The notes beneath the pieces are model-generated. The model was not told the DNA's origin. It ran no database searches and saw nothing but the letters and a program-made list of their open reading frames with translations. A program made the translations under genes and the position numbers. A DNA stretch of 64,000 nucleotides, taken from Minisyncoccia bacterium (GTDB lineage: Bacteria; Patescibacteriota; Minisyncoccia; Phycocordibacterales; UBA918). The stretch lies in NCBI GenBank assembly GCA_041742075.1, contig JBGSJJ010000005.1, forward strand, positions 97,481 to 161,480, written 5' to 3'. Below, one piece after another: positions 21,283 through 40,019 of the stretch (the stretch's first letter is position 1; every line of letters starts with the position of its first letter).

Positions 21283-22236
21283 GTGAAACTTATAACTGGC
21301 AAAATGTATCGTCTCTTTTCATTATCATCAGTCATAATTTTCTTTTTCGTGCTCACGGCTGAAGTGGCTCTGGCAGGTTTTGGAGTTACACCTCCGTATG
21401 TTCGTAACACGAGTCTTACTCGTAATTCAACGTATGAGCAGCAAATTTTAATTGTTCGTGGTGACCCGAACGTTCCCCTTAAGGCGTCTATTTTAGTTGA
21501 CGCGCCTGGCTTCTCTGAATGGATTGAAGTTGTTGAAGGAACAGAGTTTGTCCTCCCACGCGGTGAGCAAAAAGTACCAATGACGGTTCGTGTTCGAATA
21601 CCTGATGATGCTGAGTTTAAAAACTACACAGGTTCAATTCGTATCAAGACCGGAGCGGTAGACGATCAGGTTAGTGCTGGAGCGGTAAACATTTCTCTCG
21701 GGGCACAGATTGACCTAGAACTTAACGTCATCGATAAAGTCATCAAAGACTTCAAGGTACGTAAAATTGGTATCAGTGACTTAAACGAAGGAACAAAGAT
21801 TGGGTGGTTGTATTTTCCGGGAAAGATAAATTTCTCAATCGTACTTGAAAACACGGGTAACGTTGACGTAGCGCCGTCTAAAGTTGTCTTCAGAATTTAT
21901 GACGCCACTGGCTCAGTCTTGCTCGAAGAGACAAAGAACAAAGGCAAGATAGAACTCGTAAAGCCGTTTGCTGTGGAAGAGGTTGTCGCCTACTTACCAA
22001 CTTTTCTACCAAAAGGAACCTACCTCGCACGCTACCAAATATTTAATGACGATGAATCAAAGCTTGAAGGCGAGCTAAACCTCAGTATATTGCCGTACGG
22101 CACCCTTCAAGCAGCTGGCTTTGGGTTTAGTGGTCTTTCTCTCATGCATAAGGCATCAGTGATAATGCCAATTGTGGCTATCTTAGTTATCATACTTCTG
22201 TTTTTCATTTCAAGACGACGTAATCGTGTTCGTTAA
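21283..22236 (+). CDS. Two-domain surface protein anchored in the membrane by a C-terminal helix. First member of a three-paralog family.
   Basis: GTG start at 21283; an ATG at 21304 is the alternative. Signal peptide, two beta-rich domains (the second with the motif SIVLENTGNVDVAP), then a C-terminal transmembrane helix IMPIVAILVIILLFFI followed by RRRNR. Confidence 0.6.
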   Translation: MKLITGKMYRLFSLSSVIIFFFVLTAEVALAGFGVTPPYVRNTSLTRNSTYEQQILIVRGDPNVPLKASILVDAPGFSEWIEVVEGTEFVLPRGEQKVPMTVRVRIPDDAEFKNYTGSIRIKTGAVDDQVSAGAVNISLGAQIDLELNVIDKVIKDFKVRKIGISDLNEGTKIGWLYFPGKINFSIVLENTGNVDVAPSKVVFRIYDATGSVLLEETKNKGKIELVKPFAVEEVVAYLPTFLPKGTYLARYQIFNDDESKLEGELNLSILPYGTLQAAGFGFSGLSLMHKASVIMPIVAILVIILLFFISRRRNRVR

Positions 22237-22251
22237 ACAGAAATAGGGTAT

Positions 22252-23361
22252 ATGATCTTATTTTCTAGAAACATATTTCTGGTAGCACTCATCTTTGTTT
22301 TGTTGCCACAGCAATTACTAGCACAGTCATATATTGCAACAACGACACTCAGTTTAAGTATTTGTGGTGATTCAGTGATAAACCCTGGCGAAGAATGTGA
22401 CATACCATCCGAGACTGGTGTCTATAGTACGACTATTGTTGGGCGACAATGCAATGTTAACTGTCAGTTTGGTCCCTACTGTGGAGATGGAATTTTGCAG
22501 ACGCTGTTTAGTGAAGAGTGCGATGACGGTAACAACGATGACGCTGACTTCTGTAGTAGTACCTGTACGATTGAACCAGCTGGTTCAGGTGGTGGTGGTT
22601 CCTCTGGTGGTGGTGGTTCCTCCGGCGGGAGTAGCCGAGACCTGGGGGATACAGAGATTAGTGTCACGGGACGGGCGTATCCAAACCAGACGGTCAACAT
22701 TACGCTTGATGGTAATTCTGTTGGATCAGTTCGTGCTGACTCTCAAGGACGATTTGATTTTACTACCGCAGCTTCCCCAGGAACAGTTTCGATGGGTTTT
22801 TGGGCAAACGACAATCAAGGTACTCGCTCGATAACGCTCAACAATACCTTTGACGTTACTCAAGGAGCCATAACGAACATTGCAAGTATTTTACTTCCAC
22901 CGACACTCCGCGTGAATAGTACCCAAATCGATCCCGGCGCAACAGTCACGTTTAGTGGTCAAGCGCTTCCTAACGCCACGGTACAAGTCCATATCGACGG
23001 TAGTCGTATTGTACAGACCACAACGGCTAACACACTCGGTGTATGGACGCTTAACTACGCCACAAATGCACTCACGCCAAAAGCGTACCCAGTAAAAGCC
23101 CGCTACCAGATCGGAGTTCCACCACTTGTAACTGAAAGTAACTTCAGCTCTACCTTACAACTCTTTGTCGGTGTGGAAGGGCAGTCAAGTACACCGTCCG
23201 ACCTCAGTCGTGACGGCAGGGTAAACCTTACTGACTTTTCTATTCTTATTTTCTGGTGGAATAGTAATGGTGGTGATTCTGACCCTCCGGCTGACATAAA
23301 CAATAACGACCGAGTCGGAATCGAAGACTTTTCTATATTGCTGTTTAATTGGACCGGATAG
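22252..23361 (+). CDS. Secreted protein. Domains in order: Cys-rich repeats of the Myxococcus type, a G/S linker, Ig-like domains, and a C-terminal type-I dockerin-like double repeat.
   Basis: Signal peptide. CGDSVINPGEECD... and CGDGILQTLFSEECDDGNNDDADFCSSTC. Dockerin segments DLSRDGRVNLTDFSILIFWW and ADINNNDRVGIEDFSILLFNW. Confidence 0.65.
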   Translation: MILFSRNIFLVALIFVLLPQQLLAQSYIATTTLSLSICGDSVINPGEECDIPSETGVYSTTIVGRQCNVNCQFGPYCGDGILQTLFSEECDDGNNDDADFCSSTCTIEPAGSGGGGSSGGGGSSGGSSRDLGDTEISVTGRAYPNQTVNITLDGNSVGSVRADSQGRFDFTTAASPGTVSMGFWANDNQGTRSITLNNTFDVTQGAITNIASILLPPTLRVNSTQIDPGATVTFSGQALPNATVQVHIDGSRIVQTTTANTLGVWTLNYATNALTPKAYPVKARYQIGVPPLVTESNFSSTLQLFVGVEGQSSTPSDLSRDGRVNLTDFSILIFWWNSNGGDSDPPADINNNDRVGIEDFSILLFNWTG

Positions 23362-23382
23362 GAAAATGAGCAAAGGAGCGTC

Positions 23383-23404
23383 GCGACTATTGCGAATTTT
23401 CTTC
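23383..23404. repeat. Copy 1 of a 22-bp direct repeat, GCGACTATTGCGAATTTTCTTC. It overlaps a 7-bp-stem hairpin, GCGAATT-N8-AATTCGC, at 23392-23413.
   Basis: Exact 22-mer also at 23574-23595. Confidence 0.7.
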
Positions 23405-23429
23405 CCAATTCGCCCCTTTCCTAGGTCAG

Positions 23430-23463
23430 CGTAGAATTTTCATTAGCAATAGAAAATTCTACG
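23430..23463. promoter_or_regulatory. Perfect 12-bp-stem hairpin, CGTAGAATTTTC-N10-GAAAATTCTACG, in the intergenic region. Terminator-like or a protein-binding palindrome.
   Basis: Read directly from the sequence. No T-run follows, so an operator role is as likely as a terminator. Confidence 0.55.
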
Positions 23464-23573
23464 TATGAAAAACATAGTCGCTACGCTCGTTGTTTTTCAC
23501 AATTGCTCCCAGGCGCACTCCAACCTTTGCTGAGCATCACTAGTTCTTACTAATTATTTAAATCACTCCCGTG

Positions 23574-23595
23574 GCGACTATTGCGAATTTTCTTC
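23574..23595. repeat. Copy 2 of the 22-bp direct repeat, GCGACTATTGCGAATTTTCTTC.
   Basis: Exact match to 23383-23404. Confidence 0.7.
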
Positions 23596-24008
23596 AGCGC
23601 TATTTTATTCCTAGATAAAACATCGGCGCAATACCACATAATTTCAAAGTAAATTTGCGTAGTAATTATAAATTTTCTATAGACATTTGCTATTTTGCTG
23701 TCAGAGAAATATAAATTGGCATTTTTGTGTATAACTTGCACCCGTAAAAATGTACTGCACGCTACAATGTAAATGTATTTGTTACAGAGGTAACTCATTA
23801 GATGGTTACTGCACTTAGTTCGCGTACTATAGTGGGCACTTCAGCCGGGTGTTATGTAGCAAATATGCTTATGGACATTTATCAATAAGGAGGTGTGGAG
23901 ACCAACTTATTATACGTACCACAACACCACAGTGGTATTGACTCACATACTAATGATGTACAACTCGTTTTTATAGTGAGGGACATAGGCTAAAAACAAC
24001 GTAGAGCT

Positions 24009-25154
24009 ATGCTTAAAACGGAAAAAACCGTTACGCAGCTCAAAACTATTGCAATGGTTGCAGGCCTCGCGATTATTTTATGGTCGCTTGGACTGCCGTA
24101 TATCCAGCTTGCTGGAGCCGCTAATGTTACAAACTTTAGCGACACACTATCAGACTCAGCCCCAAATGCATTATCAAATCATACACTTGTGTATGAAGCG
24201 ACCAGCGGTGTTGCAAACGGTGAAACTATCGTCCTTACGTTCGAAGCAGGCTTCGACCTACTCGCGGTAGATTTCAGTGACATTGATCTCTCAGGAGATA
24301 CCTTCGGTCCATTTGACCTCGCAGCGACCTGCGGAGTTGGTGTCGAGGCCAGCGTGGCCACTTCATCTGGACCAACCATTACACTTGATTTGTGTGCTGG
24401 TGAAGGAGGAGTAATCGCTGCTGACGAGGAAGTAACTATTCTCATCGGTCTAAATGCATCTGGCGGAGACGCACAGATTAGAAACCCAGGAACCGCTGTT
24501 TCTTATGACATCACTCTTGATAGTGGTTCAGAGGACAGTGGCGCAACAATTGTTGCGATTGTTGCCAGCGTTACTGTGACGGCTGCCGTAAATACCATCT
24601 TTACCTTTACGGTAGATGGTGTAGGTGGAGGTCAAAACGTAAACGGAGTAACAACTACTGGAGTAAGTTCTTCTACAGGAATTGCGTTTGGAACGTTGTC
24701 TCCGGGAGTAGCTTCAACGGCCGCTCAAGATCTTACAGTTGAAACAAATGCTAGTAATGGCTTTGTAGTAACGGTACAGACTGACGGTCCACTTGAATCT
24801 TCAACTGGAGCAGACATCGATTCATACAATGAAGGGTCTGACACAGACACTCCATCGGGTCCATGGTCAGCACCAAACGGAGTTATAGGTCAAGAGAATA
24901 CGTATGGTCACTGGGGTATTACTTCAAATGATCAAAATACACAGGGCGCTCGAGCATCAGATTTTGCTACAAGCACCTTCTCTGCAGCGAGTACAACTCC
25001 TCGCATCGTAATGGCCCATAATGACGTTGCTGACGCAAACGAGCCAGGAATTGGTATTGCGCGCGTAGGGTATCAAATAGAAATTACTTCGCTTCAAGAA
25101 GCGGGTGATGACTACACGACTACACTAACGTACGTTGCTACACCATCATTCTAA
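24009..25154 (+). CDS. Secreted G/T/S/A-rich protein that may be a major surface or S-layer-type protein.
   Basis: Signal peptide ...IAMVAGLAIILWSLGLPYIQLAGA|ANV. It is preceded by a 650-bp AT-rich intergenic region carrying repeats and a hairpin, and is followed by a strong intrinsic terminator. Confidence 0.6.
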   Translation: MLKTEKTVTQLKTIAMVAGLAIILWSLGLPYIQLAGAANVTNFSDTLSDSAPNALSNHTLVYEATSGVANGETIVLTFEAGFDLLAVDFSDIDLSGDTFGPFDLAATCGVGVEASVATSSGPTITLDLCAGEGGVIAADEEVTILIGLNASGGDAQIRNPGTAVSYDITLDSGSEDSGATIVAIVASVTVTAAVNTIFTFTVDGVGGGQNVNGVTTTGVSSSTGIAFGTLSPGVASTAAQDLTVETNASNGFVVTVQTDGPLESSTGADIDSYNEGSDTDTPSGPWSAPNGVIGQENTYGHWGITSNDQNTQGARASDFATSTFSAASTTPRIVMAHNDVADANEPGIGIARVGYQIEITSLQEAGDDYTTTLTYVATPSF

Positions 25155-25213
25155 GTAGAAGAAAAGGTACAAATCTCTCATTGCAATAGTAGAGCTACGC
25201 AAATAAACCTATC

Positions 25214-25237
25214 TCCCACCACGAGGTGGGTTTTTTG
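25214..25237 (+). terminator. Rho-independent terminator.
   Basis: TCCCACC-ACGA-GGTGGG followed by TTTTTT. Confidence 0.75.
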
Positions 25238-25274
25238 CTGTTCACATTTTTAGTCACAAACTGAGAGAGATTGT

Positions 25275-25283
25275 TGCTATACT
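25275..25283 (+). promoter_or_regulatory. Extended -10 element TGCTATACT, 7 nt upstream of the ATG at 25291.
   Basis: Exact recurrent 9-mer. Confidence 0.5.
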
Positions 25284-25290
25284 AAAGGAA

Positions 25291-26328
25291 ATGAAACGCG
25301 CAATTTGCCTTATTCTTTGTAGTGGTATTTTTCTAAGTAGTGGCAGTTATGTGTCGGCAGCTACGCTTTACATGGACCCAAATAAAATTGAGCTGATGCG
25401 TGGCGACACCAGTGTTTTTTCTCTTAGACTAAATACTGACCCGGGCGAATGTATAAACGTTGTTGATGCCGTCATAACCTATACAGAAAATATTGAACCG
25501 GTTGATATTTCTCGCGGTAATTCAATCTTGTCTATCTGGGTAGAGGAGCCAAAAATTAACAAAGAAAATCGAACCATTACGTTTGCTGGCGGGATCCCTA
25601 ATGGGTACTGTGGTCGGATAGCTGGTGACCCGAGACTTACGAACAACTTGGTAGATATTTTGTTTATGTCACCGGGTCTTTCTATTGGAACAACAGAAAA
25701 TGGCAACTTGGCCAAGATTAACTACGGTGAGCAAACGCGTGTGCTATTAAATGACGGCTTTGGTACTGAAGCACCACGACAGCTCTTTGGAGCAGAAATC
25801 ACTCTGTCACCTAATGCTGGTTCGCAGGTCAATAACGAGTGGCTTGATAGAGTGGAGGCCGATGAAATTCCTCCCGAAGACTTTACGGTAAGTCTTGAAC
25901 AAACACCAAATGCTTTTGGCGGAAAGTACTTTATTGTTTTTAATACCACCGACAAGCAAACCGGTTTAGCGTACTATGAGGTAATTGAGGAACCGCTTGA
26001 ACTCATCAATCTTTTCAGTTGGGGTGCCGCCGATGCTCCGTGGAGAGAGACGCAAAGTCCATACGTGCTAAAGGACCAGACACTTAACAGTACTATCCGC
26101 GTTCGGGCGGTGGATAAAGCTGGTAATGAGTATATGGCTACTTTGATTCCAGATGAATCAAGACGAGGCATCCCAATGCCATACCTGCTTATTTTTGGAG
26201 CGATACTGGTGCTTACGGTTGGCCTACTAACTCTCGGATACGTTCTAATTCGTCGATTCAAGGCTAGAAAATCAGAAGACCACTCTTCAGACAATGATAC
26301 GCTCGAGGAAGATGAAGTTGAAGAATAA
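25291..26328 (+). CDS. Membrane-anchored surface protein with an N-terminal cohesin-like domain, a C-terminal transmembrane helix and an acidic cytoplasmic tail.
   Basis: Signal peptide, then a cohesin-like pattern: ATLYMDP...VFSLRLNTDPGECINVVDAVITYTENIEPVDISRGNSILSIWVEEP...TITFAGGIPNGYCG. Transmembrane helix LLIFGAILVLTVGLLTLGYVLI. C-terminal tail EDEVEE. Confidence 0.6.
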   Translation: MKRAICLILCSGIFLSSGSYVSAATLYMDPNKIELMRGDTSVFSLRLNTDPGECINVVDAVITYTENIEPVDISRGNSILSIWVEEPKINKENRTITFAGGIPNGYCGRIAGDPRLTNNLVDILFMSPGLSIGTTENGNLAKINYGEQTRVLLNDGFGTEAPRQLFGAEITLSPNAGSQVNNEWLDRVEADEIPPEDFTVSLEQTPNAFGGKYFIVFNTTDKQTGLAYYEVIEEPLELINLFSWGAADAPWRETQSPYVLKDQTLNSTIRVRAVDKAGNEYMATLIPDESRRGIPMPYLLIFGAILVLTVGLLTLGYVLIRRFKARKSEDHSSDNDTLEEDEVEE

Positions 26329-26329
26329 T

Positions 26330-28093
26330 ATGAGTGCGTATTTATTTAAAAACATATATTCAACTGTCTACCTAGTCGTACTAATGGTGTTTGTGTGTTT
26401 AGGTTTTACACTTCAGGCTGAAGCTGCAACACTATCATTTTCACCAAGTACCGGTGTATACCAAAGTGGTAAAACGTTTACCGCTAGTGTTGTCATAAAT
26501 ACAGAGGGTCAATCAATCAACGCGGCAGAAGGAACGATAAAGTTTAACCCCGGCGAGCTATCAGTAGTTAGTGTAACGAAAGGCTCGCTTTTTAATCTCT
26601 GGACAGCAGAACCAACGTTTTCTAATTCAGCTGGTACCATCTCATTTAGTGGCGGTAACCCAACTGGGTACAAGGGATCAGCTGGTACGGTACTGACTAT
26701 TACGTTTAGGGCAACAGGGAGCGGTTCAGCTAAAACTTCCTTTGGTAGTGGGGCTGTTCTGGCAGCAGACGGGAGGGGTACTAACGTACTTTCTACCATG
26801 GGTAGTGGCAACTACACGATTAGTTCACAAACTACTACACCGACTGAAGAAGTGATTATTGAGTATGTAGCTCCCGCGAATACTCCCGGGGCACCAGTTA
26901 TAACCTCAACTACTCACAGTGACTCAAGTAAATGGTACAAGCAAAAAACTGCTGAGTTGAGTTGGAAACTACCGGCGGGAGTGACGGGTGTACGCACCTC
27001 GCTCGATACGTCGCCGTCTGGGGTACCGACTAAAGTCTACGACAGTCCGATTTCAAGCATCTCACTCCCTGACCTAGACGAAGGGGTTTCGTACTTTCAC
27101 TTACAATTTCGAAACGCAGATGGCTGGGGCAAAATTACCCATTATCGTCTCGCGATAGACTCTGAAGCACCTTCTGCCTTTACCTTGGCAGTAAAGGAAG
27201 GTTCAGATAGCGCTAGCCCAACCCAGACGCTTTCGTACCAGGTAACTGACGAGTCGTCTTCCGTCAATAGATTTATGCTTCAAATAGACGGTGCTGAAGC
27301 AATTGAGTATATTGATTCTGACAAGAAAGGTGAAATTATTTTGCCGGAGCTTAAACCTGGGTATCACACCATTGTTGTAGAGGCCTTTGATGAAGCGGGA
27401 AATGGCACGTTGGCTACGATTTCGTTAACGATTGAGTCATTTGATAAGCCAGTCTTTACCGAGTACCCAACGAGTATCGACAACACTGTTATTCCAGTCA
27501 TTAAAGGTAAGACGCGTCCGCAAGCGACTGTTAAAGTCACCTTTACACAAGTCGGTGTGGGAGTCTCTTCAAGTGATACCGTTAAAACCTATGAAGTCGG
27601 AGCGGGAGAAAATGGCGAATTTGTTGTTATTCCTGACGGTAGACTAGGGTATGGTGTCTATGAACTCAGCGCCATTGCGTTAGATACAAGCGGTGCCCAA
27701 AGTGACATATCTGAGATAATCCGAATAGTAGTTGAAGAGCCGGGTTACGTACGTTTTGGCACCTTTGCTATCAGTGTACTTTCAGTGGTTATTCCACTTT
27801 TGGCACTCTGTATCCTGCTGTTTGTCAGTGTGTGGTTTATTTTGGTACGAACGAGACTGCTTAAAAAGGGAGTGGTGAGAGAAGCGCATGAAGCAGAAGC
27901 CATGCTGGTACGAGAGTTTAAAGAGCTACGAACGCTACTTGATTCGCAAAAGGAAGTTTTGATAGCTTCTCGAAAGGGAGGTAAAATGACTAAGTCTGAG
28001 TCAGACCTCATAGATGAACTCGCACATGCCCTGCGGGAGTCTGAGAATCGAGTCATGAAAGAGATAGAAGATGTTAATAAGCTTGTCGAATAA
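26330..28093 (+). CDS. Membrane-anchored surface protein. Domains in order: N-terminal cohesin-like domain, Ig/Fn3-like domains, a transmembrane helix, and a cytoplasmic coiled coil.
   Basis: ATLSFSPSTGVYQSGKTFTASVVINTEGQSINAAEGTIKFNPGELSVVSVTKGSLFNLWTAEP...TISFSGGNPTGYKG. Transmembrane helix ISVLSVVIPLLALCILLFVSVWFIL. The ORF is open from 26294, but the start was chosen at the ATG at 26330 to avoid overlap with the upstream gene. Confidence 0.6.
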   Translation: MSAYLFKNIYSTVYLVVLMVFVCLGFTLQAEAATLSFSPSTGVYQSGKTFTASVVINTEGQSINAAEGTIKFNPGELSVVSVTKGSLFNLWTAEPTFSNSAGTISFSGGNPTGYKGSAGTVLTITFRATGSGSAKTSFGSGAVLAADGRGTNVLSTMGSGNYTISSQTTTPTEEVIIEYVAPANTPGAPVITSTTHSDSSKWYKQKTAELSWKLPAGVTGVRTSLDTSPSGVPTKVYDSPISSISLPDLDEGVSYFHLQFRNADGWGKITHYRLAIDSEAPSAFTLAVKEGSDSASPTQTLSYQVTDESSSVNRFMLQIDGAEAIEYIDSDKKGEIILPELKPGYHTIVVEAFDEAGNGTLATISLTIESFDKPVFTEYPTSIDNTVIPVIKGKTRPQATVKVTFTQVGVGVSSSDTVKTYEVGAGENGEFVVIPDGRLGYGVYELSAIALDTSGAQSDISEIIRIVVEEPGYVRFGTFAISVLSVVIPLLALCILLFVSVWFILVRTRLLKKGVVREAHEAEAMLVREFKELRTLLDSQKEVLIASRKGGKMTKSESDLIDELAHALRESENRVMKEIEDVNKLVE

Positions 28094-28757: not shown

Positions 28758-28765
28758 TAGCATCT

Positions 28766-29518
28766 ATGAAGCGCATACTGCACTTTTTCTTTCCCTGGAT
28801 GATAAAGTCAAAATCGTCTACTGTTAAGTATGCGTTCCCACTTTTCTTTGGTATTGCCACCTTGCTTGGCGCTTCTGCCTTATTATCTGAAACTGATACC
28901 TACATTATCCTTGAAGCCGATAATGAAGAGGTGATAGCTGGGCAAAATTTTGCCATTGATGTATATGTCGTAGCTCAAGTGCCAATTAATGCCGTTGATA
29001 TACGAGTCGCGCTTCCAGTGAGTCAGGTAAAGATGCTGGGTGTCGACACGGGTGAGTCAGTTATTACCCTCTGGACCAAGCAACCATATTTTGAAAACGG
29101 CACTGTGTATTTTTCTGGCGGTACGTACCGTAAGGGTTTTGTCGGAAAACATAAAATTGGCACCATTAATGGCCAAGCACTCACCTCTGGGTTAGCCCAC
29201 GTTGGCGTAACCTACGCTGACTTATACGCTGGAGATGGTACGGGCGATAAGGTAACTGTAACAAGTGCGGGTGAAGACAAGACAGAGCTTAAAATTGCTC
29301 GAGAAGATGGGACTTTTTTACCTAGCGCTAGTCTAGAGGGAACCGCTCAGTTTGGTATTGTGGGAGATATTGATGGCGACGGTAAGGTTTCCTTAAAGGA
29401 TTTAAGCGCTTTTATGAATGCCTGGCAAACTAAGTCAGCCAATCATGACTTTGACGGTGATAACAAGATGACATTTCGTGATTTTGGCATTATTTTGTCT
29501 AAGTTTTTCTTTCAATAG
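28766..29518 (+). CDS. Secreted protein with a cohesin-like domain and a C-terminal type-I dockerin-like double repeat. Candidate adaptor protein.
   Basis: YIILEADNEEVIAGQNFAIDVYVVAQVPINAVDIRVALPVSQVKMLGVDTGESVITLWTKQP...VYFSGGTYRKGFVG. Dockerin segments GDIDGDGKVSLKDLSAFMNAW and HDFDGDNKMTFRDFGIILSKFF. Confidence 0.6.
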   Translation: MKRILHFFFPWMIKSKSSTVKYAFPLFFGIATLLGASALLSETDTYIILEADNEEVIAGQNFAIDVYVVAQVPINAVDIRVALPVSQVKMLGVDTGESVITLWTKQPYFENGTVYFSGGTYRKGFVGKHKIGTINGQALTSGLAHVGVTYADLYAGDGTGDKVTVTSAGEDKTELKIAREDGTFLPSASLEGTAQFGIVGDIDGDGKVSLKDLSAFMNAWQTKSANHDFDGDNKMTFRDFGIILSKFFFQ

Positions 29519-31171: not shown

Positions 31172-34100
31172 GTGAAGTGTATGAACCGAACACGGCTGTT
31201 TTATAGTGAGGATAAGAAGCGCTTTAAGCAAGTAATTGTATCAGTGTGTCTTTTTGCGTTACTTCTTTCAGACGTTGCTACCATATTTACTCTTATTACA
31301 CCAATACCTGCCGAGGGTGCGGAAGTGACGATAACGTCGGTTGAAAGTACGACTGCAGCGAGACATTTACATAGCGGTTCACAATCAGTGTTTATATCTG
31401 ACCAGGAGGGGTACAAATTTTTTGCAGAATTTATATCGGCGGGAAACTCTGAGTGCTCGTACGTAAAAACAGAAGATGGTGGTGACACCTGGGGTGTCGC
31501 GCAAAAGGTTGACGACCAAGGAACCGGAACAGACTGTCTTGGTATTACCGTCCACTATGATAAATGGACCCCGGGAGATACTGGTGACTATATCCATATT
31601 TTGACCATGGATAACGGTTCAGACGACTTATTTTATAACCGTCTTGATACAACTGATGATTCACTTTTGGCGGGAGCAACTGCTATTAACGTGACCCAAA
31701 CTGCTGGCTACCCAACGGTGACATTTGTAGACTCAGATAATAAGTCGAGTATTACTAAAAGTACGACTGGTGAGCTATTTATTTCTGTTGACGAAGGAAC
31801 ACTGAATGGTTCAAGAGTGTACCGATGTAGTACCGCCTGCGATACGCCGTCTAACTGGTCTGAAGCAGGTACTTCTCCGCAAGACGATGTGAACGATTGG
31901 TCACTTCTTACGCCGCTTCTGGCTGGAGAAGTTTTGTTAATTAACTGGGACTTATCGGCCAACACCCTTAGGTCGCGTGTTTGGCACACCTCATCTAGCT
32001 CGTGGAGTACTTCATGGACGACAATTACTAACATAGCAGAAGAGAATACGACGTATGACGTTGGTATGTCCGCAGTAACCGATAAAAATGGCGTTGTTTA
32101 TCTCGCACATACTGCAGACAACACCACAATTGGTGGTAATAATGATGACGTTAGAACTAAGCGATACGATGGATCATGGGCTACTACTACCAACGTCGTT
32201 ACAAATACCTCACGAGGGGTTACTCAGGTAGCCTTAGGGCTCGATTCAAACACTAATGATGTCTATGTGGCATACACAGCGAGAACGACGGCCGCTACCG
32301 CCAGTACGACCCGGGTCTATTGGCATAAGTCTACTGATGGAATGTCTACTTGGGGCAGTGAGCAAGGACCAGTAAATACTCCGAGCGGTGACCTGTATGG
32401 TATAGACTTAAACAGAATCTCTAACGAACGTATCTACGCGTCTTGGTATAGCTTAACGGGTAGTCATATACGAGGCGATACTTTAGCTGACGTTTATGGT
32501 GGTGTAGCGGTAAGTGCGACGAGTACGCAAGTAACAGAAGTGCGAGCAAGTTCAACTAACGTCTATAGTGGTGGTACATTTGTCCTTCAAGAAAACTCTA
32601 TCGTACGAACCATCAACTCCATTACGGTAAGTGAGAACGGATCGATCGATGCCTCAACCGGTATTAGAAATACCAAGCTGGTGTACGACCTGGATACATC
32701 TGCTCCGTATAACTGTGTCAGTGAAAGTTACGGTGGTAGTGAACTGCAGTACGGTGACACTGATACCAATGGTTTCTCTGCTTCAGATGGAGTGTCTGCT
32801 TTTAGTGATATCGGGATAACTATTAGTAGTACGTCGGCCATGTGTTTGTATGTCGTACATGATGTAACAAGTGAAGCGGTCGATGGTGACACAATTAACT
32901 TTTATATCGACGACCCAAGTACAGATGTTGAAATATCAGTTGGCGGAGTGGTTGTCCCAAGTACGATAATAGATATTTTTGGTACAACTACGGTGAAAGA
33001 TGATGTCCTTACCCAAAGCCACTATCATTTTAGAAATGATGACGGGAGTGAGACGACAGCTACCTCAAAAACTGGCGGCTCTGAAGATACTGAATTAACT
33101 GCACTCCAGCAAAATTCACCCGTACGGCTTCGTATAGAAGTCTCAAACGAGGGATCAACAACGTCACTCCCAACCTCACTTCGCCTTGAGTATAGTCTCT
33201 CAACTTCAACGTGTAGTGTGGCGACCGGTTGGACCGATGTTGGGGCAACGAATGACGCAATTAATATGTCAAACACTGGTAACTTAACGGATGGCTCAAA
33301 TACAACCGACATTCCCAATGGTGACGGAGGAGTTTCAAACGAAAATACAACATTTTTAAGCAGTAATGGTGGAGTCCGTGACACTAGTTCACAAACCGGA
33401 CCACTTACCTTTGCTTCAACTACCTTTGTTGAGCTTGAGTACTCAATTGTTGCTTCAACCAGTGCACCGGAGGGGAGTGCCTACTGTTTTAGGTTGACTG
33501 ACGCCGGGACGCCACTTGGAAACTATGTTGAATACCCACGGGTCACCATAGACTCAGCCGTAAGGCTTTCAGCCTTAGGGAGTCAGATAGCCAATACAGT
33601 TATTCCAGGAACTGCGGTATATATTGGAGGCGCCTTTGTCCTTGAAGAAAATGTTTTAAGTCGAGATGTTACGAGTATTACCATAAAGGAAAGTGGTAGT
33701 ATCGATGCCACAACTGGCCTTACTAACACGTCTCTTTATTATGAGACTGATACATCGTTGCCGTATGATTGTTCAAGTGAAAGTTATGCTGGTGGTGAAA
33801 CCGCATTTAGTTCAGCCGGCACGTTTACTGGAGCGGATGGAACGGCGACATTTACCGACACGGTAAACTTTTCAACCAGTAGTACCCTTTGCTTGTACGT
33901 GGTAACTGACATTACTGAGTCAGCCGTCAATGGTGAGACACTCGACATTAGCATTACTAACCCTTCAACGGATGTATTAGTAAGTGGTGGGGCAACAGTT
34001 TCGCCGGGCGCTCTCGTTGACATAACCGGGAGTACTACGTTAAATGGGGCAATTTTAACACAGACACATTTTCACTTTAGAAATGATGACGGGAATGAGA

Positions 34101-37100
34101 CGACCGCTACTTCGAAGACTGGCGGAGTAGAAGACATAGTGCTTACTGATTTTCCACGTGAGGTTCCCACCAGAGTCCGCGTGCAGGTATCAAACGAAGG
34201 GAGTGCGAGCTCCGCCCCCGTCGCGTATCAGCTTGAGTACGGCACAAAAATTACTACCTGCGAAAATATCGGAACATGGCTCAGTATGGATTCTGTTAAT
34301 GCAGCGTTTGAGGTGGTTGACTCAAGTAACTTAACTGACGACACTGATACTACTGACATCACTGTCGGGACCGGTGGTGTAACGAATGAAAATACAACTT
34401 TCCTTACACCAAATAGCAGTGTTGAGGAGGGAAGTGCCCTTAGTGCGACAACCACACTGAGCGACACCGAGTTTATTGAACTTGAGTACGTATTTCAGCA
34501 AACTGATAAAGCCGGCTATAACACCAGCTATTGTTTTAGACTGTCTAAGTCTGGTGTACCACTCAATGCCTACGACAAGTACCCCGAACTAACAACGACA
34601 ACTAAAAAAGACTTTAAAGTTCAGCGGGGTAGCACAACTGTCACCGGTACTTCTGTCACTATCACAGCCGGAGTAGACTACGTTGCGCCAAGTTCTACTT
34701 CCTCAGCCTTTATTCGTATAACGAACTCTAACCATACGGGAGCCGGAAGAGTCAGTGGCGGTGGTAACCAATTTGCTCGCGATGTGTCTACCTACATTTC
34801 TAACCCAAGAAACCTACTGACTTCAGTTACGTTTGTGAGACCCACTGGTGCCATTAACAACACGAGAGTTGACTGGGAAATTGTCGAGTATGTTGGTGAC
34901 GTTGGTGGTGATAACGAGATGATTGTACGTGATCAGTACATCGTTGACTATGGAACCACCGCTACTGCCACGTCTGGTCCAGCTGTGTCTGGTGTAGTGA
35001 GTAACAACGATGTTGTTGTGTTTATTACTGGTGCCTTTAGTCCCGACGCTAGTCAAAATGACTATGAAACACTGCAATCTACTTCAAACTGGGCGACCAC
35101 TACTCAGCAACCTACTTTTACTCGAGGGGTAGCGGGAGGTGATGCAGTTCGTTTGAGTTACGCAGTTGTTGAGTTTACCGGTGTCAACTGGAAAGTACAG
35201 CGCATACAACACACCTATACAGCAGTTGGTTCACTTGAAACGAAAGACATTACACCAGTCAATAGTTTAAGTCGGGCATTTATTCATACGCAAAAGCAGA
35301 TGACGAATGGCCTTCAATCTATGGCAAACTTTGGTCACGAAGTGTGGCTGTCGAGTATTGGTGTACTTTCGTTTCGTCTTGATGGTGCCGCCACAACAGC
35401 TTCAGGTCACACCTCAGTGGCGTGGGTTATAGAGAATACTCAGCTTACCCTCGGTGCTATGAAAGTCCACCGGGATGCAAGTGGGTCAACCTCAGGTGGG
35501 GTTGAACCACTCAACCTTTCACTCGCCATTGGAGCAACTTTGGCTGCCACCACCACCAGTTCAATCTTTGCTAACTCTCGACTCTCTAGTAACGGAGCCA
35601 ACTTCCCTCAACCAATTGCTGGTTTTTCAATTGCCTCAACCACCAACATTCTGCTGTGGCGGAGTGATTCCGGTAACGTACTTACTTTTCGCGTGGAGGT
35701 AGTTGAGTGGCCAGTAGCAGAACTTTCGTTTAGACAGAACTACTACCAATTTTACGTAGATAATGGAAGTAGTACACCAGAGGATATCTGGCCACCCGGA
35801 CCGACAGACCTTGATGAAAATGCAGCCGTCACAGGAGCGTACGAACCGATAGGTGAAGGAGAACAGATACGTATTCGTATGACACTTAAAGTTGCTAATG
35901 CGACGTTCCCTGACAATAATCAGAGTTTCAAACTTCAATATGGGAGACGCACTACTCCATCATGTACAGCAATTTCTTCCTGGAGTGATGTAGGCAACGT
36001 CGGCAGTGGTGCCGTTTGGCGAGGCTATAACACGGCAGCTATCGATGGTTCAACGTTACCAAGTACGCTGATATCAATTGCTGACGTAGCAGGTACTTTT
36101 GAGGAAGAAAATAACTCAGCCGTAAACCCAAATACCGTACTTGAGACTGAAGATATCGAATACGATTGGGCAATTGAACACAACGGTGCCCTCCAGCGCT
36201 CTGACTATTGTTTTAGAATGGTGTATGCGGATGGAACGCCACTGTCTGTCTACTCAGAGTACCCAACCCTGCGCACAACCGGCTACACACCAGTTATTTC
36301 AAAGTGGCGCTGGTATACCGATGAGAGTAGTGCTACGCCACTTATACCACTGGCTGGTGAAAACGTGAGCCCGATAGATGTCGTAAACAGTGAAGTTCTT
36401 AAACTACGCGTGACGCTCCGGGAAGTAGAAAGCGCAACGGGTGAAAATGTTAAGTTCGCTGTGCAGTATTCACAGTACGCTAACTTTAGCGATGGCGGTA
36501 CGTTTATTACAAGCACGACCACGTGTACCAGCTCTTCAACGTGGTGCTATGCCGATGTAGCTGGAATTGATAACGAGCTCATCGATGAAGCAATTCTGTC
36601 TGATGCTGAGTCGTGCGCGTCAGCGACTGGAACCGGCTGTGGTACCTATAACGAAATCGCCTCGTCTACTAGTTTACTGACCCAGGATGCCCTTAGTACC
36701 CTTGAGTTTGAATACGCGATTAGGCAAGGTATTCCACGAGTCGGAGGAACCTACTACTTCCGTCTGTATGATACGGTTAACAATGAACCAATTTCTGCCT
36801 CCTCCTCTACCTTCCCGAGTCTGATCACTGAAGGTGCACTCTTATCTTTTTCGGTAAACGGATTACCATCTGGTACTACAACTGAAGGTATTGTGACAGA
36901 TGCCACTACCACTCCAACCTCTCTTTCGTTTGGCTACTTACCATTTGATGATGTTCAATATGGTGCCCATCGGTTGAGTGTCTCAACCAACGCCACTGAA
37001 GGGTATCGATTGTTCGTAGTAGCTGACCAACAGTTAACTGACCTGTATGGCAATACTATTTTGCCGATTTCTGGTACCAATACCGCTCCGGTCAGTTGGG

Positions 37101-37354
37101 CTACCGGCTGTTCAGTCTTAGCAAACAGTTGCTTTGGTTACCACGCTGGAGATGACGTTCTGGAGGGAGGATCAGCACGTTTTGCGCCAAATGATACGTT
37201 TTCTAGTATCAACACTAGTTTGGGCGAGATTATGTACAGTACCGTGCCGGCGAGCGATACTCATGATATTGTATATGGGATCTCAGTTAGTGAACGGGCG
37301 CCAGCCGGTGCGTACCAAAACAATATTTCCTATATAGCGGTACCAGTGTATTAA
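31172..37354 (+). CDS. Giant secreted surface protein (2060 aa) with BNR/Asp-box repeats near the N-terminus and an internal tandem duplication of about 1.05 kb.
   Basis: Transmembrane or signal segment VIVSVCLFALLLSDVATIFTLI. BNR motifs TEDGGDTWG and STDGMSTWG. The repeated module ...LTQ(S/T)H(Y/F)HFRNDDG(S/N)ETTATSKTGG...LEY(S/G) occurs at about nt 33000 and 34060. Confidence 0.8.
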   Translation: MKCMNRTRLFYSEDKKRFKQVIVSVCLFALLLSDVATIFTLITPIPAEGAEVTITSVESTTAARHLHSGSQSVFISDQEGYKFFAEFISAGNSECSYVKTEDGGDTWGVAQKVDDQGTGTDCLGITVHYDKWTPGDTGDYIHILTMDNGSDDLFYNRLDTTDDSLLAGATAINVTQTAGYPTVTFVDSDNKSSITKSTTGELFISVDEGTLNGSRVYRCSTACDTPSNWSEAGTSPQDDVNDWSLLTPLLAGEVLLINWDLSANTLRSRVWHTSSSSWSTSWTTITNIAEENTTYDVGMSAVTDKNGVVYLAHTADNTTIGGNNDDVRTKRYDGSWATTTNVVTNTSRGVTQVALGLDSNTNDVYVAYTARTTAATASTTRVYWHKSTDGMSTWGSEQGPVNTPSGDLYGIDLNRISNERIYASWYSLTGSHIRGDTLADVYGGVAVSATSTQVTEVRASSTNVYSGGTFVLQENSIVRTINSITVSENGSIDASTGIRNTKLVYDLDTSAPYNCVSESYGGSELQYGDTDTNGFSASDGVSAFSDIGITISSTSAMCLYVVHDVTSEAVDGDTINFYIDDPSTDVEISVGGVVVPSTIIDIFGTTTVKDDVLTQSHYHFRNDDGSETTATSKTGGSEDTELTALQQNSPVRLRIEVSNEGSTTSLPTSLRLEYSLSTSTCSVATGWTDVGATNDAINMSNTGNLTDGSNTTDIPNGDGGVSNENTTFLSSNGGVRDTSSQTGPLTFASTTFVELEYSIVASTSAPEGSAYCFRLTDAGTPLGNYVEYPRVTIDSAVRLSALGSQIANTVIPGTAVYIGGAFVLEENVLSRDVTSITIKESGSIDATTGLTNTSLYYETDTSLPYDCSSESYAGGETAFSSAGTFTGADGTATFTDTVNFSTSSTLCLYVVTDITESAVNGETLDISITNPSTDVLVSGGATVSPGALVDITGSTTLNGAILTQTHFHFRNDDGNETTATSKTGGVEDIVLTDFPREVPTRVRVQVSNEGSASSAPVAYQLEYGTKITTCENIGTWLSMDSVNAAFEVVDSSNLTDDTDTTDITVGTGGVTNENTTFLTPNSSVEEGSALSATTTLSDTEFIELEYVFQQTDKAGYNTSYCFRLSKSGVPLNAYDKYPELTTTTKKDFKVQRGSTTVTGTSVTITAGVDYVAPSSTSSAFIRITNSNHTGAGRVSGGGNQFARDVSTYISNPRNLLTSVTFVRPTGAINNTRVDWEIVEYVGDVGGDNEMIVRDQYIVDYGTTATATSGPAVSGVVSNNDVVVFITGAFSPDASQNDYETLQSTSNWATTTQQPTFTRGVAGGDAVRLSYAVVEFTGVNWKVQRIQHTYTAVGSLETKDITPVNSLSRAFIHTQKQMTNGLQSMANFGHEVWLSSIGVLSFRLDGAATTASGHTSVAWVIENTQLTLGAMKVHRDASGSTSGGVEPLNLSLAIGATLAATTTSSIFANSRLSSNGANFPQPIAGFSIASTTNILLWRSDSGNVLTFRVEVVEWPVAELSFRQNYYQFYVDNGSSTPEDIWPPGPTDLDENAAVTGAYEPIGEGEQIRIRMTLKVANATFPDNNQSFKLQYGRRTTPSCTAISSWSDVGNVGSGAVWRGYNTAAIDGSTLPSTLISIADVAGTFEEENNSAVNPNTVLETEDIEYDWAIEHNGALQRSDYCFRMVYADGTPLSVYSEYPTLRTTGYTPVISKWRWYTDESSATPLIPLAGENVSPIDVVNSEVLKLRVTLREVESATGENVKFAVQYSQYANFSDGGTFITSTTTCTSSSTWCYADVAGIDNELIDEAILSDAESCASATGTGCGTYNEIASSTSLLTQDALSTLEFEYAIRQGIPRVGGTYYFRLYDTVNNEPISASSSTFPSLITEGALLSFSVNGLPSGTTTEGIVTDATTTPTSLSFGYLPFDDVQYGAHRLSVSTNATEGYRLFVVADQQLTDLYGNTILPISGTNTAPVSWATGCSVLANSCFGYHAGDDVLEGGSARFAPNDTFSSINTSLGEIMYSTVPASDTHDIVYGISVSERAPAGAYQNNISYIAVPVY

Positions 37355-37363
37355 AATAATAGT

Positions 37364-38395
37364 ATGAATGTATCTCTATCGCTCTCTATACGTCTTCTAA
37401 TCAGCATTGTTTTAGGTCTGTTTCTTTTAAGCACTACGACACTGACTTTTGCAGCTAGCTATTCGGTGTCACCACTCGTTATCGACCGAACTGTCAGTCC
37501 ACGTGAATCAGAAACAGTGCCAATTACTATTACCAACTCAACTGGTGGGCCGGTCCGTCTGTATGCAACCGTAAATACTATTAATGTAGACGAGAATGGC
37601 GCCATCACAGAATTTGTCGAGCCTTCGATGGTTGACACTACCGTTACGGTCACCTCGTGGCTTCAGATTTCACGACAGCGGATTGAGCTACCGGCTGGAG
37701 AAACGTTTACCACTGAACTAACTCTAAAAATCCCTGCCAAAATAGAGCCAGGCGAGTATCATGCGTTTATTGGTTTCCCTGATGCGAGTAATCGGCCTGA
37801 AGCGGAAGCACAAGTGGCAACGGGAAATGTTCCGGGTGTAGTGGTACGGATAGCAGTGGGGGATGATTCCTTCTCACTTCTACGCATGAGCAAGTTTTAT
37901 ATCGATCGGTTTATCACGACAAAGGCAGACCGCACTGCAGTAATTACGCTAGCCAATACCGGTACCCAGCCAGTAACTCCAACCGGTGAAATAATTTTTT
38001 ATAACACCAAGGGTATTGAAGTAAATGCTGTCCCACTTACAAGCGAATCAGTCACTATCCTAGAGGGTGGAGAAGCGAGTATTAACGTCGACTTACCGAG
38101 CGATTTGCGTTTTGGTAAGTACAAGGCCTTTCTTAACATGCAGTACGGCAACAATCAAACCGCTCAACTGCAAGACACAACGTTCTTTTACATTATCCCG
38201 ATCTATCATTTATTGGCCATTTTTATGACGTTACTCGTCTTAGCGCTTATACTTGCACTTAAAGTCCATCGCCAGTATGCTCGTGTAACTGATGATGATT
38301 TTGCTAAGATAGGTGCTATACCTATGTATGTGCGGGGCGTAACGTCAGAACCTCAAGACCATGATATTGACCTCAAAAATCAGAATAGTAAGTAG
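37364..38395 (+). CDS. Two-domain surface protein anchored by a C-terminal transmembrane helix. Paralog of 21283 and 38361.
   Basis: Signal peptide. Second domain with VITLANTGTQPVTPTGEIIFYNTKG. Transmembrane helix LLAIFMTLLVLALILAL. Confidence 0.6.
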   Translation: MNVSLSLSIRLLISIVLGLFLLSTTTLTFAASYSVSPLVIDRTVSPRESETVPITITNSTGGPVRLYATVNTINVDENGAITEFVEPSMVDTTVTVTSWLQISRQRIELPAGETFTTELTLKIPAKIEPGEYHAFIGFPDASNRPEAEAQVATGNVPGVVVRIAVGDDSFSLLRMSKFYIDRFITTKADRTAVITLANTGTQPVTPTGEIIFYNTKGIEVNAVPLTSESVTILEGGEASINVDLPSDLRFGKYKAFLNMQYGNNQTAQLQDTTFFYIIPIYHLLAIFMTLLVLALILALKVHRQYARVTDDDFAKIGAIPMYVRGVTSEPQDHDIDLKNQNSK

Positions 38396-40019
38396 CTCAA
38401 AATTACTGCTTTTAGTCATTCTCTTTGTTGGACTACTTGGTTTTACTGGAGTAGCTCTCGCTCAGTCAGGCCTCTCAATTAGTGTAACGCCAAGCTTAAT
38501 TGAACTATCTGTCGAGCCTGGTCGAACCTGGGAAAGCTCAGTTAAGGTTATAAATAATAACCAGTTTGATTTAACTGTCTACGCCAACGTTGTAAACTTT
38601 GCTCCACAAGGAGAATCTGGCCAAGGTGCCTTTTTGCCGATCGAAGCAGGCGGTGACAAAACTACTGTTGCCGAGTGGCTTACGGTCAGCTCTGACCCGA
38701 TTGTCATACCGCGTGAGTCAAGTACAGAAGTACCTTTATTACTTACTGTTCCCGCAAACGCCGCACCGGGCGGACATTATGCGGCTATCATGATTGGTAC
38801 AAAACCACCTGAAAGTAGCAACATTACGGCAGTGAGAACCTCACAAATTGTCACCGCATTGTTTTTTGCTCGAGTCACCGGTGACGTGATTGAAAACGGT
38901 ACAATTCGATCATTTCGTCCGACCGACTTTGTGGTCGGTAGTCCTACAGCAACGTTTGAACTGCGCTTTGAGAATAACGGTAACGTCCACCTGCAACCGC
39001 AAGGTGAGATTGTTATTAAAAACATGTGGGGTGCAACACGAGGCCTCATACCTATTAATCGAGAAACGCATTTTGGTAATGTGCTACCAAATAGTATTAG
39101 AAAGTTTGAATTTACGTGGAGCGGAGCCTTTTCGCTCACAGATATCGGTCGCTATACAGCTGAGGTTGCTTTAGCGTACGGTGAGGACGCACGCAAGTTT
39201 TCCTCCTTTAGTACTTCGTTTTGGGTTTTACCCCTTAAGGGTATAACCCTCGCTCTTATAGTGCTATTTGGACTTATTTTCTTCCTCCGTTTTGTCGTAC
39301 GTTCTTATGTAAGACGAATGCTGGTCTTAGCTGGTGTTGATCCAAATATGGGAAAACGCGTGCCAGTATCTCTACCAAAGCTGCCTGGTAAAGATGTGCG
39401 GATTATAAAAACAGCCATGCTTACTGCTCCCGTTAAAAATGGGTTTAGTGACTTCAAGTCAAAGATGCGAGCCGTCCCGATACTTAAAGATAAATTCTAT
39501 GCGGTGCTAGAGTTTATCTACCAATACAAACTATTTTTTATTTCAGTCCTGGTTTTTATTGTTCTTGTCGTTGGTATAATCTTCTTCTTCAAGAGCGTCC
39601 TCACGAAAGAAGTTCCGTATGAAATAACCGTCGACCGGGAAGGTGAAGACGTCACGCTCTCCTCAGAACAAATCGAATTTGATGCAAACAATTCTACAGA
39701 AGATATACAGACTGAAACCGTTGTTTCAGACTCAAGTTCACAACCGTTTACCCTCATTCTGACAAATGCGAGCGGAAAGTCAGGTGTTGCTGGTACCTTA
39801 AAAACAGAACTTGAAAATGATGACTATGTAGTTGATGAGCTCCGGTCTGACTTAACTGGTGTAAAAAATAGAACAGTAATTATTTACAGTAAAGAAGTTG
39901 AAGAGTCAGCCTTAAAGCTAAGTGAGCGTTTAAACAACGCACTCCTATCGGCATTGTCAGACACAACCGGCCCACCAGAAATTGAAGTTCTCATCGGTAC
40001 AGATTATCTAGAAGAGTAG
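38361..40019 (+). CDS. Two-domain surface protein, paralog of 21283 and 37364, with a transmembrane helix, a long cytoplasmic region and a second transmembrane helix.
   Basis: Signal peptide LLLLVILFVGLLGFTGVALAQS. ELRFENNGNVHLQPQGEIVIKNMWG. Transmembrane helices GITLALIVLFGLIFFL and FFISVLVFIVLVVGIIFFF. Overlaps the upstream gene by 35 bp. Confidence 0.6.
   Translation: MILTSKIRIVSSSKLLLLVILFVGLLGFTGVALAQSGLSISVTPSLIELSVEPGRTWESSVKVINNNQFDLTVYANVVNFAPQGESGQGAFLPIEAGGDKTTVAEWLTVSSDPIVIPRESSTEVPLLLTVPANAAPGGHYAAIMIGTKPPESSNITAVRTSQIVTALFFARVTGDVIENGTIRSFRPTDFVVGSPTATFELRFENNGNVHLQPQGEIVIKNMWGATRGLIPINRETHFGNVLPNSIRKFEFTWSGAFSLTDIGRYTAEVALAYGEDARKFSSFSTSFWVLPLKGITLALIVLFGLIFFLRFVVRSYVRRMLVLAGVDPNMGKRVPVSLPKLPGKDVRIIKTAMLTAPVKNGFSDFKSKMRAVPILKDKFYAVLEFIYQYKLFFISVLVFIVLVVGIIFFFKSVLTKEVPYEITVDREGEDVTLSSEQIEFDANNSTEDIQTETVVSDSSSQPFTLILTNASGKSGVAGTLKTELENDDYVVDELRSDLTGVKNRTVIIYSKEVEESALKLSERLNNALLSALSDTTGPPEIEVLIGTDYLEE

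Follow-up and report, generated by a model that had tools for sequence, protein, structure and literature searches.

Predicted WxLIP-like membrane proteins beside large secreted proteins in a conserved surface-protein cluster of Patescibacteria

Firmicutes carry WxL (Csc) cell-surface clusters, reportedly described by Siezen in 2006 and Galloway-Pena in 2015, in which the WxLIP, a protein of the DUF916/DUF3324 type that keeps surface proteins on Gram-positive gut bacteria, also goes by the names CscA and DufA. [quoted passage not shown] In the Firmicutes WxLIP, a hairpin strand is predicted by AlphaFold2 (AF2) to complete the β-sandwich of the WxL domain (Hassan et al. 2023, PMC10599100), and the whole WxL/WxLIP system is described as occurring almost exclusively in Lactobacillales and Bacillales (PMC9772566, PMC10599100). 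Here we describe three divergent members of this family, P1, P2 and P3, encoded next to large secreted proteins in a stretch of 64,000 nucleotides (nt) from a Minisyncoccia bacterium (Patescibacteriota; contig JBGSJJ010000005.1, positions 97,481 to 161,480), referred to below as the window. Other open reading frames (ORFs) are named after their start position (e.g. o24009), and the predicted parts of the three proteins, including their transmembrane (TM) helices, are as follows.

21283-22236, + strand: P1, 317 aa; signal peptide ~1-31 (...ALA/GFG), DUF916-like domain ~32-148, DUF3324-like domain ~150-270, TM helix ~290-311, short basic tail
37364-38395, + strand: P2, 343 aa; signal peptide 1-30, DUF916-like domain ~31-166, DUF3324-like domain ~170-278, TM helix ~280-304, 40-aa cytoplasmic tail
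38361-40019, + strand: P3, 552 aa; WxLIP-like N-terminal 320 aa, TM1 ~293-313, cytoplasmic loop, TM2 ~386-408, extracytoplasmic LytR_C domain 468-549

The relation to the Firmicutes proteins was assessed with a reference profile built from seven annotated 'DUF916 and DUF3324 domain-containing' proteins, the Firmicutes WxL loci being drawn from Enterococcus, Lactiplantibacillus, Levilactobacillus, Lactococcus and Niallia plasmids. In profile-profile alignments (hhalign), the P2 family matched this profile with a probability of 97.5% (E 5.6e-12, 254 columns spanning signal peptide, DUF916 and DUF3324), a diverse P1 family with 98.0% (E 2.2e-13, 253 columns) and the P3 family with 95.3% (E 2e-8, 245 columns), and the alignments continue through the DUF3324 part of the reference profile (template columns ~160-276/294). 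The same family profiles, aligned as negative controls with a WxL-domain profile, reached E 0.04-0.1. For P1, a first profile of low diversity (alignment A2) gave a weak match (E 2.5e-3, probability 11.7%), which became convincing only after diverse relatives had been added from an exhaustive representative search (1010 cluster representatives at 50% identity). Sequence identity in the alignments to the Firmicutes WxLIP is ~13%, and none of the three proteins has a recognisable counterpart of the conserved N-terminal Firmicutes motif NQIDKxxxYFDLK (in P2, YSVSPLVIDRTVSPRE aligns with it).

Searches at the level of single proteins gave a graded picture. A hidden Markov model (HMM) of the seven Firmicutes WxLIPs, run against the ORFs of the window, matched P2 at 7.7e-10, and with the Pfam model WxLIP_PGBD (PF06030, DUF916) P2 scored 26.5 bits, just below the cut-off of 27.3, P3 scored lower and P1 had no match in the Pfam scan. 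No direct match to WxLIP_HBD (PF11797, DUF3324) was found in P1, P2 or P3 by the Pfam scan of the window. Among relatives, WxLIP_PGBD is matched, below its threshold, by 19 of the 39 P2-family members (E <= 0.01), and WxLIP_HBD by one P1-like relative (3.5e-5). The P2 model, the only one of the three that was computed (AF2 with an alignment of P2 relatives as input; mean predicted local distance difference test score, pLDDT, 88.1), consists of a signal helix, two β-sandwich domains and a long helix (280-312), and in a Foldseek search of the PDB its top three matches belong to 9i25_C and 9i1y, both annotated 'WxLIP from Enterococcus faecium' (E 5e-12 to 5e-11, 246-274 columns), 9i25 being entitled 'WxLIP bound to long WxL'. 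Generic proteins with two immunoglobulin (Ig)-like domains and the fimbrial chaperones CfaA and EcpB come further down the list. The TM-scores against the E. faecium structures are low (0.28-0.42, root-mean-square deviation ~17 Å), which we suppose to be due to a different inter-domain orientation in the P2 model.

Given the profile-profile alignments, the top Foldseek matches and the Pfam matches among relatives, P1, P2 and P3 are true homologs of the Firmicutes WxLIP across both domains, P2 being the member closest to the canonical WxLIP. An earlier note on this DNA had pointed to a likeness in layout to the DUF916/DUF3324 proteins, and that likeness can now be read as homology. The same note had compared the second domain to CARDB and DUF11, a comparison that did not survive: neither Pfam CARDB (PF07705) nor DUF11 (PF01345) has a match in P1, P2 or P3, CARDB is matched in 2 of 30 (E 0.088) and 2 of 41 (E 0.0019) family members, and DUF11 in none of these. 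Of the four models that the note had put forward for such a search, it is DUF916 (near threshold in P2, matched by relatives) and DUF3324 (matched by a relative) that are borne out, and the assignment of the second domain to CARDB or DUF11 was rejected as generic Ig-like similarity.

In divergent P1-like relatives (P0361-P0510, alignment A5), SH3_3/SH3_4 bacterial SH3 domains occur in 4 of 41 proteins, and one weak LPXTG-anchor match and one weak GW-domain match were also seen, which suggests cell-wall association in other lineages.

Kinship among the three proteins themselves is uneven. By BLASTP, P2 and P3 align readily (E 2e-14, 25% identity over 325 aa), P1 and P3 marginally (E 0.011) and P1 and P2 not significantly, so that profiles are needed to place P1. 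With hhalign, the P1 and P2 families align over both domains (probability 96.7%, E 3.6e-10, 213 columns), the more so with the more diverse P1 profile (98.8%, E 4.9e-17), and the P3 and P1 families align at E 1.1e-13. Searching all ORFs of the window with an HMM of each family recovered exactly P1, P2 and P3, the next ORF having E >= 0.06. P2 and P3 are plain paralogs, and P1 clearly joins them, though only at the profile level. The three-member family that had been proposed from the translations is upheld in this form, with the qualification that pairwise alignment suffices for P2 and P3 but not for P1.

The proposed common layout, i.e. a signal peptide, two domains and a C-terminal TM helix, is likewise found in all three proteins except for the position of the helix in P3. 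Hydrophobic segments mark the signal peptide and the later TM helix in P1 (8-36 and 285-313), P2 (1-31 and 273-303) and P3 (7-38 and 285-317), both domains being β-sandwiches, but in P3 ~235 residues follow TM1, including a second TM segment (382-418) and the LytR_C domain (Pfam E 3.1e-7). This fusion is kept in P3 relatives, for which precomputed Pfam annotation also lists LytR_C, and with the domain located outside the cell it possibly makes contact with the cell wall. Counterparts of the motifs that had been pointed out, W(I/L)x(V/I)S, P.GE and one around N(T/N)G(N/T), are seen in the translations (WIEVV, WLQIS and WLTVS; LPRGE and LPAGE; ENTGNVDVAP, ANTGTQPVTP and ENNGNVHLQP). Domain 1 of P2 and P3 contains a conserved excursion of lower model confidence (P2 residues 76-99), which aligns to a loop of the Firmicutes WxLIP. 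The cytoplasmic tail of P2 (residues 313-343; window 38300-38395) carries a ...KDHDIDL... motif that is invariant across 39 relatives; by position, H333 and D334 are invariant and I335 and L337 nearly so, which hints at a cytoplasmic partner.

Set against the Firmicutes WxLIP, P1 and P2 are of similar size (317-343 aa vs 337-365 aa), and the order of signal peptide, two Ig-like β-sandwich domains and C-terminal TM helix is the same in P1 and P2 and, over its first 320 aa, in P3. The neighbours are also comparable, being large and small secreted proteins with a common C-terminal domain. On the other hand, P1-P3 are found in Patescibacteria instead of Lactobacillales or Bacillales, they remain below the Pfam gathering threshold (P1 not being detected by Pfam), they occur as three paralogs in one cluster with P3 fused to TM2 and LytR_C, and P2 has a conserved cytoplasmic tail motif whereas the tails in Firmicutes are short and basic. 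Moreover, unlike Firmicutes WxL loci, the present cluster also holds cohesin/dockerin proteins, a MacB-type ABC transporter and Dsb genes.

This cluster is a single co-directional array of surface-protein genes of ~42 kb (window 86-42516). Its further members are listed below, type A and type B denoting two C-terminal domains shared between secreted proteins, and 'client' a protein that may be bound by P1, P2 or P3.

86-14845, + strand: 4919-aa giant surface protein (o86) with Gly_rich_2 and DUF2341; type-A domain at the C-terminal end; large candidate client of P1
16678-19233, + strand: ABC ATPase (440 aa) and MacB/FtsX-type permease (402 aa), directly upstream of the 621-aa gene
19333-21198, + strand: 621-aa secreted Thr/Ser/Cys-rich protein (o19333), type-A domain ~385-617; directly upstream of P1; candidate small client of P1
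22252-23361, + strand (co-directional): Cys-rich Ig/dockerin protein with myxo_disulf repeats; weak dockerin match below the Pfam cut-off
24009-25154, + strand: 381-aa secreted two-domain protein (o24009) with MSCRAMM-like fold; type-B domain ~190-381, end ...GDDYTTTLTYVATPSF; candidate small client
25291-26328 and 26294-28093, + strand (co-directional): two TM-anchored cohesin-like proteins, with a Pfam Cohesin match in 26294 only
28766-29518, + strand (co-directional): cohesin-like/dockerin protein; weak dockerin match just above the Pfam cut-off
31172-37354, + strand: 2060-aa giant exoprotein, type-B domain ~1890-2060, end ...GAYQNNISYIAVPVY; directly upstream of P2; candidate large client of P2/P3
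40027-40539, + strand: 170-aa single-pass membrane protein, always after P3
40543-42516, + strand (co-directional): DsbA-like, redoxin (AhpC/TSA) and DsbD/CcdA-like genes, directly downstream of the surface genes

In agreement with the earlier note, P1 lies directly after the 621-aa ORF (84 nt) and P2 directly after the 2060-aa giant (9 nt). The start of P3 overlaps the end of P2. Between the listed genes, an fn3 protein is encoded between the 4919-aa giant and the ABC ATPase, a 228-aa membrane protein after the two TM-anchored cohesin-like genes, and a β-propeller protein ahead of the 2060-aa giant. The ABC ATPase bears a C-terminal extension past its ABC domain, and together with the permease it is a possible energising or export component. 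The three cohesin-like proteins are mutually related (BLASTP 2e-10 and 4e-6), and the cohesin/dockerin set suggests a cellulosome-style protein-docking scaffold in a bacterium of the Candidate Phyla Radiation (CPR). No LPXTG protein was noticed in the cluster. The extracytoplasmic disulfide system encoded by the Dsb genes adjoins the Cys-rich exoproteins (the 621-aa protein and that at 22252). The 5' part of the 4919-aa ORF (window 1-4000) has a GC content of 0.49-0.55 and a GC skew of 0.14-0.25, clearly above the rest of the window.

The occurrence of the cluster was followed in species-representative genomes, in which P1 relatives were found in 183 stretches, 80 loci being kept. These are mostly labelled Patescibacteria, Kaiserbacteria, Paceibacteria, Parcubacteria or Nomurabacteria; many others are labelled automatically as 'uncultured Candidatus Saccharibacteria', a few are named only 'bacterium', and two of the 80 carry other labels, which may reflect mis-binning. 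The P1 family comprises 1282 matches (63-89% identity among the best 120) and the P2 family 214 (~340 aa, 40-57% identical, one member being named Candidatus Kaiserbacteria); for the locus scan the P2 alignment (A1) was too diverse, and a tighter sub-alignment (A4) was used. Across the 80 species-level loci the gene order hardly varies: wherever sequence upstream of P1 is available, the gene immediately before it codes for a homolog of o19333 (604-648 aa), and in 18 of 19 informative loci a giant (1830-2690 aa) lies directly upstream of P2, with P3 directly downstream. One locus (L032) has only a 321-aa P3-like gene, after a cohesin protein. Median identities across the species-level genomes are 77-79% for the two transporter genes (ABC ATPase and MacB permease), which no other gene of the cluster equals in conservation, 63% for P1 (next among the surface proteins), 46% for P3 and 41.5% for P2.

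A distant lineage (loci L118-L124), whose proteins are 22-24% identical to P2, has a compact and rearranged gene order, i.e. a giant (at least 2000 aa), a WxLIP-like gene (374-534 aa), an o24009-like gene (355-401 aa), a second WxLIP-like gene (310-324 aa), and after these, genes of the o22252-like and cohesin-like kinds. The short WxLIP-like form of this lineage matches the Firmicutes WxLIP profile as well (hhalign E 6.2e-12), and its giant and small proteins both end in ...GxYxxTxxYVxTxxY. The linkage that survives this rearrangement is more telling than adjacency within a frozen cluster, and together with the giants in 18 of 19 loci it means that, in the genomes surveyed, the paralogs are not scattered away from large exoproteins, as the earlier note had considered they might be. 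In the literature that was searched, no paper links DUF916, DUF3324 or WxL with Patescibacteria/CPR, or describes this CPR cluster.

If the three proteins act as WxLIPs, their clients would be expected among the neighbouring exoproteins, two pairs of which share a C-terminal domain. The type-A domain is common to the 4919-aa giant (4707-4919) and the 621-aa protein (385-617; E 6e-10), and the type-B domain to the 2060-aa giant (1890-2060) and o24009 (197-381; E 6e-6); a jackhmmer profile of type B also recruits the giants of the distant lineage, and no relationship between types A and B was detected by hhalign or jackhmmer. The combination of a large and a small protein sharing a C-terminal domain with a WxLIP-like protein is found twice in the window and again in the distant lineage, and it recalls the canonical WxL cluster. 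In having their common domain at the very C-terminus, and in forming pairs of a large and a small protein, the exoproteins resemble WxL proteins (PF13731; CscB/CscC, Swp/Lwp). Type B contains two aromatic-x-hydrophobic motifs 109-123 residues apart, the second exactly 6 residues from the C-terminus, and in the genuine WxL proteins used as reference, 67-119 residues separate the two motifs and 6-14 residues separate the second from the C-terminus (compare ...DYTTTLTYVATPSF in type B with ...EYSTTITWNLVEGP in Firmicutes WxL). Type B nevertheless differs from WxL in having Tyr/Phe for Trp and a different spacing to the following Pro.

In several of the exoproteins (ORFs 19333-21198, 24009-25154 and 31172-37354, and those of L118-L124) the very last residue is aromatic (W, F or Y) and is preceded by a strand motif G-x-Y-x-x-T-x-x-(Y/F) that is kept in the lineage with 22-24% identity; the 4919-aa giant (...YPVAED) is the exception. 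In a genuine WxL locus of Firmicutes, on Enterococcus gilvus plasmid pCR1A (L087), two proteins without a WxL annotation (5162-5770 and 2730-4274) have the C-termini ...ISYQLYNTADAQ and ...INYQLYNTPNAD. These ends are Tyr-for-Trp variants of the second WxL motif, and such variants therefore exist within Firmicutes WxL loci. The o24009 family is large (1931 matches, the best 120 at 50-68% identity), with many copies alone on short contigs. The o24009 model (mean pLDDT 84.7) has two β-sandwich domains and matches the N2N3 regions of the MSCRAMM adhesins ClfA, SdrE and SdrG (Foldseek, E ~1e-6), the WxL chain of 9i25 not being among its top 50 matches. The full-length o24009 profile, searched against PDB sequences, gave haemagglutinin matches only, which were judged to be due to chance.

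On balance, we lean modestly towards the reading that P1, P2 and P3 are divergent WxLIP-type anchors that would hold non-WxL client exoproteins on the cell surface. What carries this reading are the WxLIP homology, the predicted topology of a cleavable signal peptide followed by two extracytoplasmic Ig-like domains and a membrane anchor, and the persistent linkage to large secreted proteins, and an anchor or partner function for the neighbouring exoproteins would fit their conserved adjacency, including that in the rearranged lineage. In such a scheme, P1, P2 and P3 would be exported via Sec and stay tethered to the membrane by their TM helix, and the distal DUF916-like domain would bind the C-terminal β-sandwich domain of the secreted exoproteins, probably by β-strand complementation, so that the giant adhesin-like proteins would be held on the cell surface. 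Type-A proteins (4919 and 621 aa) would be the clients of P1, and type-B proteins (2060 and 381 aa) those of P2 and P3.

A number of observations weigh against this scheme, the first group of which concerns the clients. Five approaches to a WxL identity of the exoprotein C-termini were all negative or at the level of controls: Pfam WxL (PF13731) is matched neither in the window proteins nor in 37 relatives of o24009; hhalign of type B against WxL (a 14-sequence reference) gave E 0.019, the level of controls (0.04-0.05), and type A was at control level as well; jackhmmer over all collected ORFs, Firmicutes WxL sequences included, recruited no WxL; hmmsearch --max, ranked against 103 Firmicutes ORFs, did not place WxL above decoys (all <= 4.3 bits); and the WxL chain of 9i25 is absent from the top 50 Foldseek matches of the o24009 model. 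What remains is the resemblance in motif and spacing. Since a WxL domain could not be detected in any of the exoproteins nearby, the locus is not a canonical WxL locus, and it lacks the two or more neighbouring C-terminal WxL proteins by which Hassan et al. recognise a cluster. The second group concerns P1 and the adjacency itself. P1 is without 16-21 residues at the domain-1 loop that P2, P3 and the Firmicutes WxLIP possess; the missing loop may be the strand-donating hairpin, in which case P1 would have to function in a somewhat different way. The conservation of P1 also exceeds by much what a simple anchor would need. Since the whole cluster is frozen and syntenic, adjacency within it is weak evidence of pairwise partnership, and in one locus (L047, CAYOAM010000001.1) P2 and P3 directly follow the homolog of the gene at 28766, with neither a β-propeller gene nor a giant.

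An alternative, which we consider unlikely, is that P1, P2 and P3 are membrane-tethered assembly chaperones that transiently cap the incomplete C-terminal β-sandwich of exported subunits (e.g. the abundant o24009) and hand them on for polymerisation or cohesin/dockerin docking, possibly energised by the MacB-type ABC transporter. PapD-like and class 5 chaperones such as CfaA and EcpB likewise consist of two Ig-like domains in tandem (matching the P2 model at Foldseek E 1e-9 to 1e-7) and are conceptually similar in complementing the incomplete β-sandwich of a client with a β-strand; CfaA (4y2o, 4ncd and 6k73; E ~1e-9) and EcpB (5dfk) are in fact the next-best specific fold matches of P2, and a PapD-like ASH domain is matched by three P2 relatives. 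With a single exception, the exoproteins terminate in an aromatic residue that follows an alternating β-strand motif, and such ends resemble the pilin C-termini that are recognised by chaperones. The o24009 family is very large and has the look of a structural subunit or adhesin, and the MacB/ABC genes rank first in conservation within the cluster, followed by P1 among the surface proteins. However, WxLIP ranks higher in the fold search and is the only one with sequence-profile support: Pfam PapD_N and PapD_C have no match in the window proteins or the 39 P2 relatives, and no sequence-level relationship to the chaperones was detected. Pilus chaperones are, moreover, soluble, periplasmic, usher-dependent proteins of diderms, whereas P1-P3 are membrane-anchored in a presumed monoderm whose cluster has no usher-like gene or polymerisation component, and permanent anchoring by a TM helix is more in keeping with a tether than with a chaperone that is recycled.

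It is less likely still that P1, P2 and P3 are autonomous surface adhesins or cell-wall binders, their linkage to the giants reflecting a frozen operon without any binding of exoproteins. Adjacency is indeed unspecific when a whole cluster (~40 kb) is syntenic in ~80 species-level genomes, P2 and P3 do occur without a giant in L047, the neighbours have no detectable WxL domain, and SH3b cell-wall-binding domains are found in some P1-like relatives; Hassan et al. 2023 (PMC10599100) even propose that the two domains of WxLIP itself bind the host and peptidoglycan. Against this stands that WxLIP-like genes still flank the giant and the o24009-like gene in the rearranged lineage, that the homologous family has a solved complex with a neighbouring exoprotein (9i25), and that the pattern of a large, a small and a WxLIP-like protein occurs twice in the window.

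Because the conservation of P1 (median 63%, compared to 41-46% for P2/P3) approaches the 77-79% of the ABC ATPase and MacB permease, there is some room for a link of P1 to the transporter, MacB/FtsX-type transporters commonly acting through extracytoplasmic partner proteins. In favour of such a link, P1 also lies just two genes downstream of the transporter genes (with the 621-aa gene alone in between) and lacks the domain-1 loop of P2, P3 and WxLIP. Yet the idea that P1 is such an accessory (a mechanotransmission partner), with only P2 and P3 anchoring exoproteins, would seem improbable: P1 remains a full two-domain WxLIP homolog, and the short WxLIP-like gene of the distant lineage lies between the o24009-like and o22252-like genes instead of beside an ABC permease.

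Returning to the anchoring of non-WxL clients by P1, P2 and P3, a broader and distinctly more doubtful proposal can be built on it. The WxLIP fold might be an ancient, general monoderm device for surface retention by β-strand complementation, and the set of three paralogs, together with the MacB-type ABC transporter and the cohesin/dockerin scaffold, might form a core and near-universally conserved machine that mounts the giant adhesins by which the episymbiotic Paceibacteria/Kaiserbacteria attach to hosts. Types A and B would then be either an unrecognised class of client domains or extremely divergent 'WxL' domains with Tyr/Phe.

Much of bacterial diversity belongs to the Patescibacteria (CPR), whose life is spent attached to other cells. 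For a specialist, Ig-like anchors in a surface operon are in themselves unsurprising; it is the phylogenetic jump, the near-universal conservation within this lineage and the testable pairing that make the case worth following. Three WxLIP homologs in a cluster shared by at least 80 species-level genomes point to a concrete and testable mechanism by which the giants of CPR bacteria may be anchored, with the type-A and type-B C-termini as specific candidate binding domains. The WxLIP family itself would be extended well beyond Lactobacillales and Bacillales, and it is suggested that a WxLIP can serve clients without recognisable WxL domains, which would change the reading of DUF916/DUF3324 proteins elsewhere.

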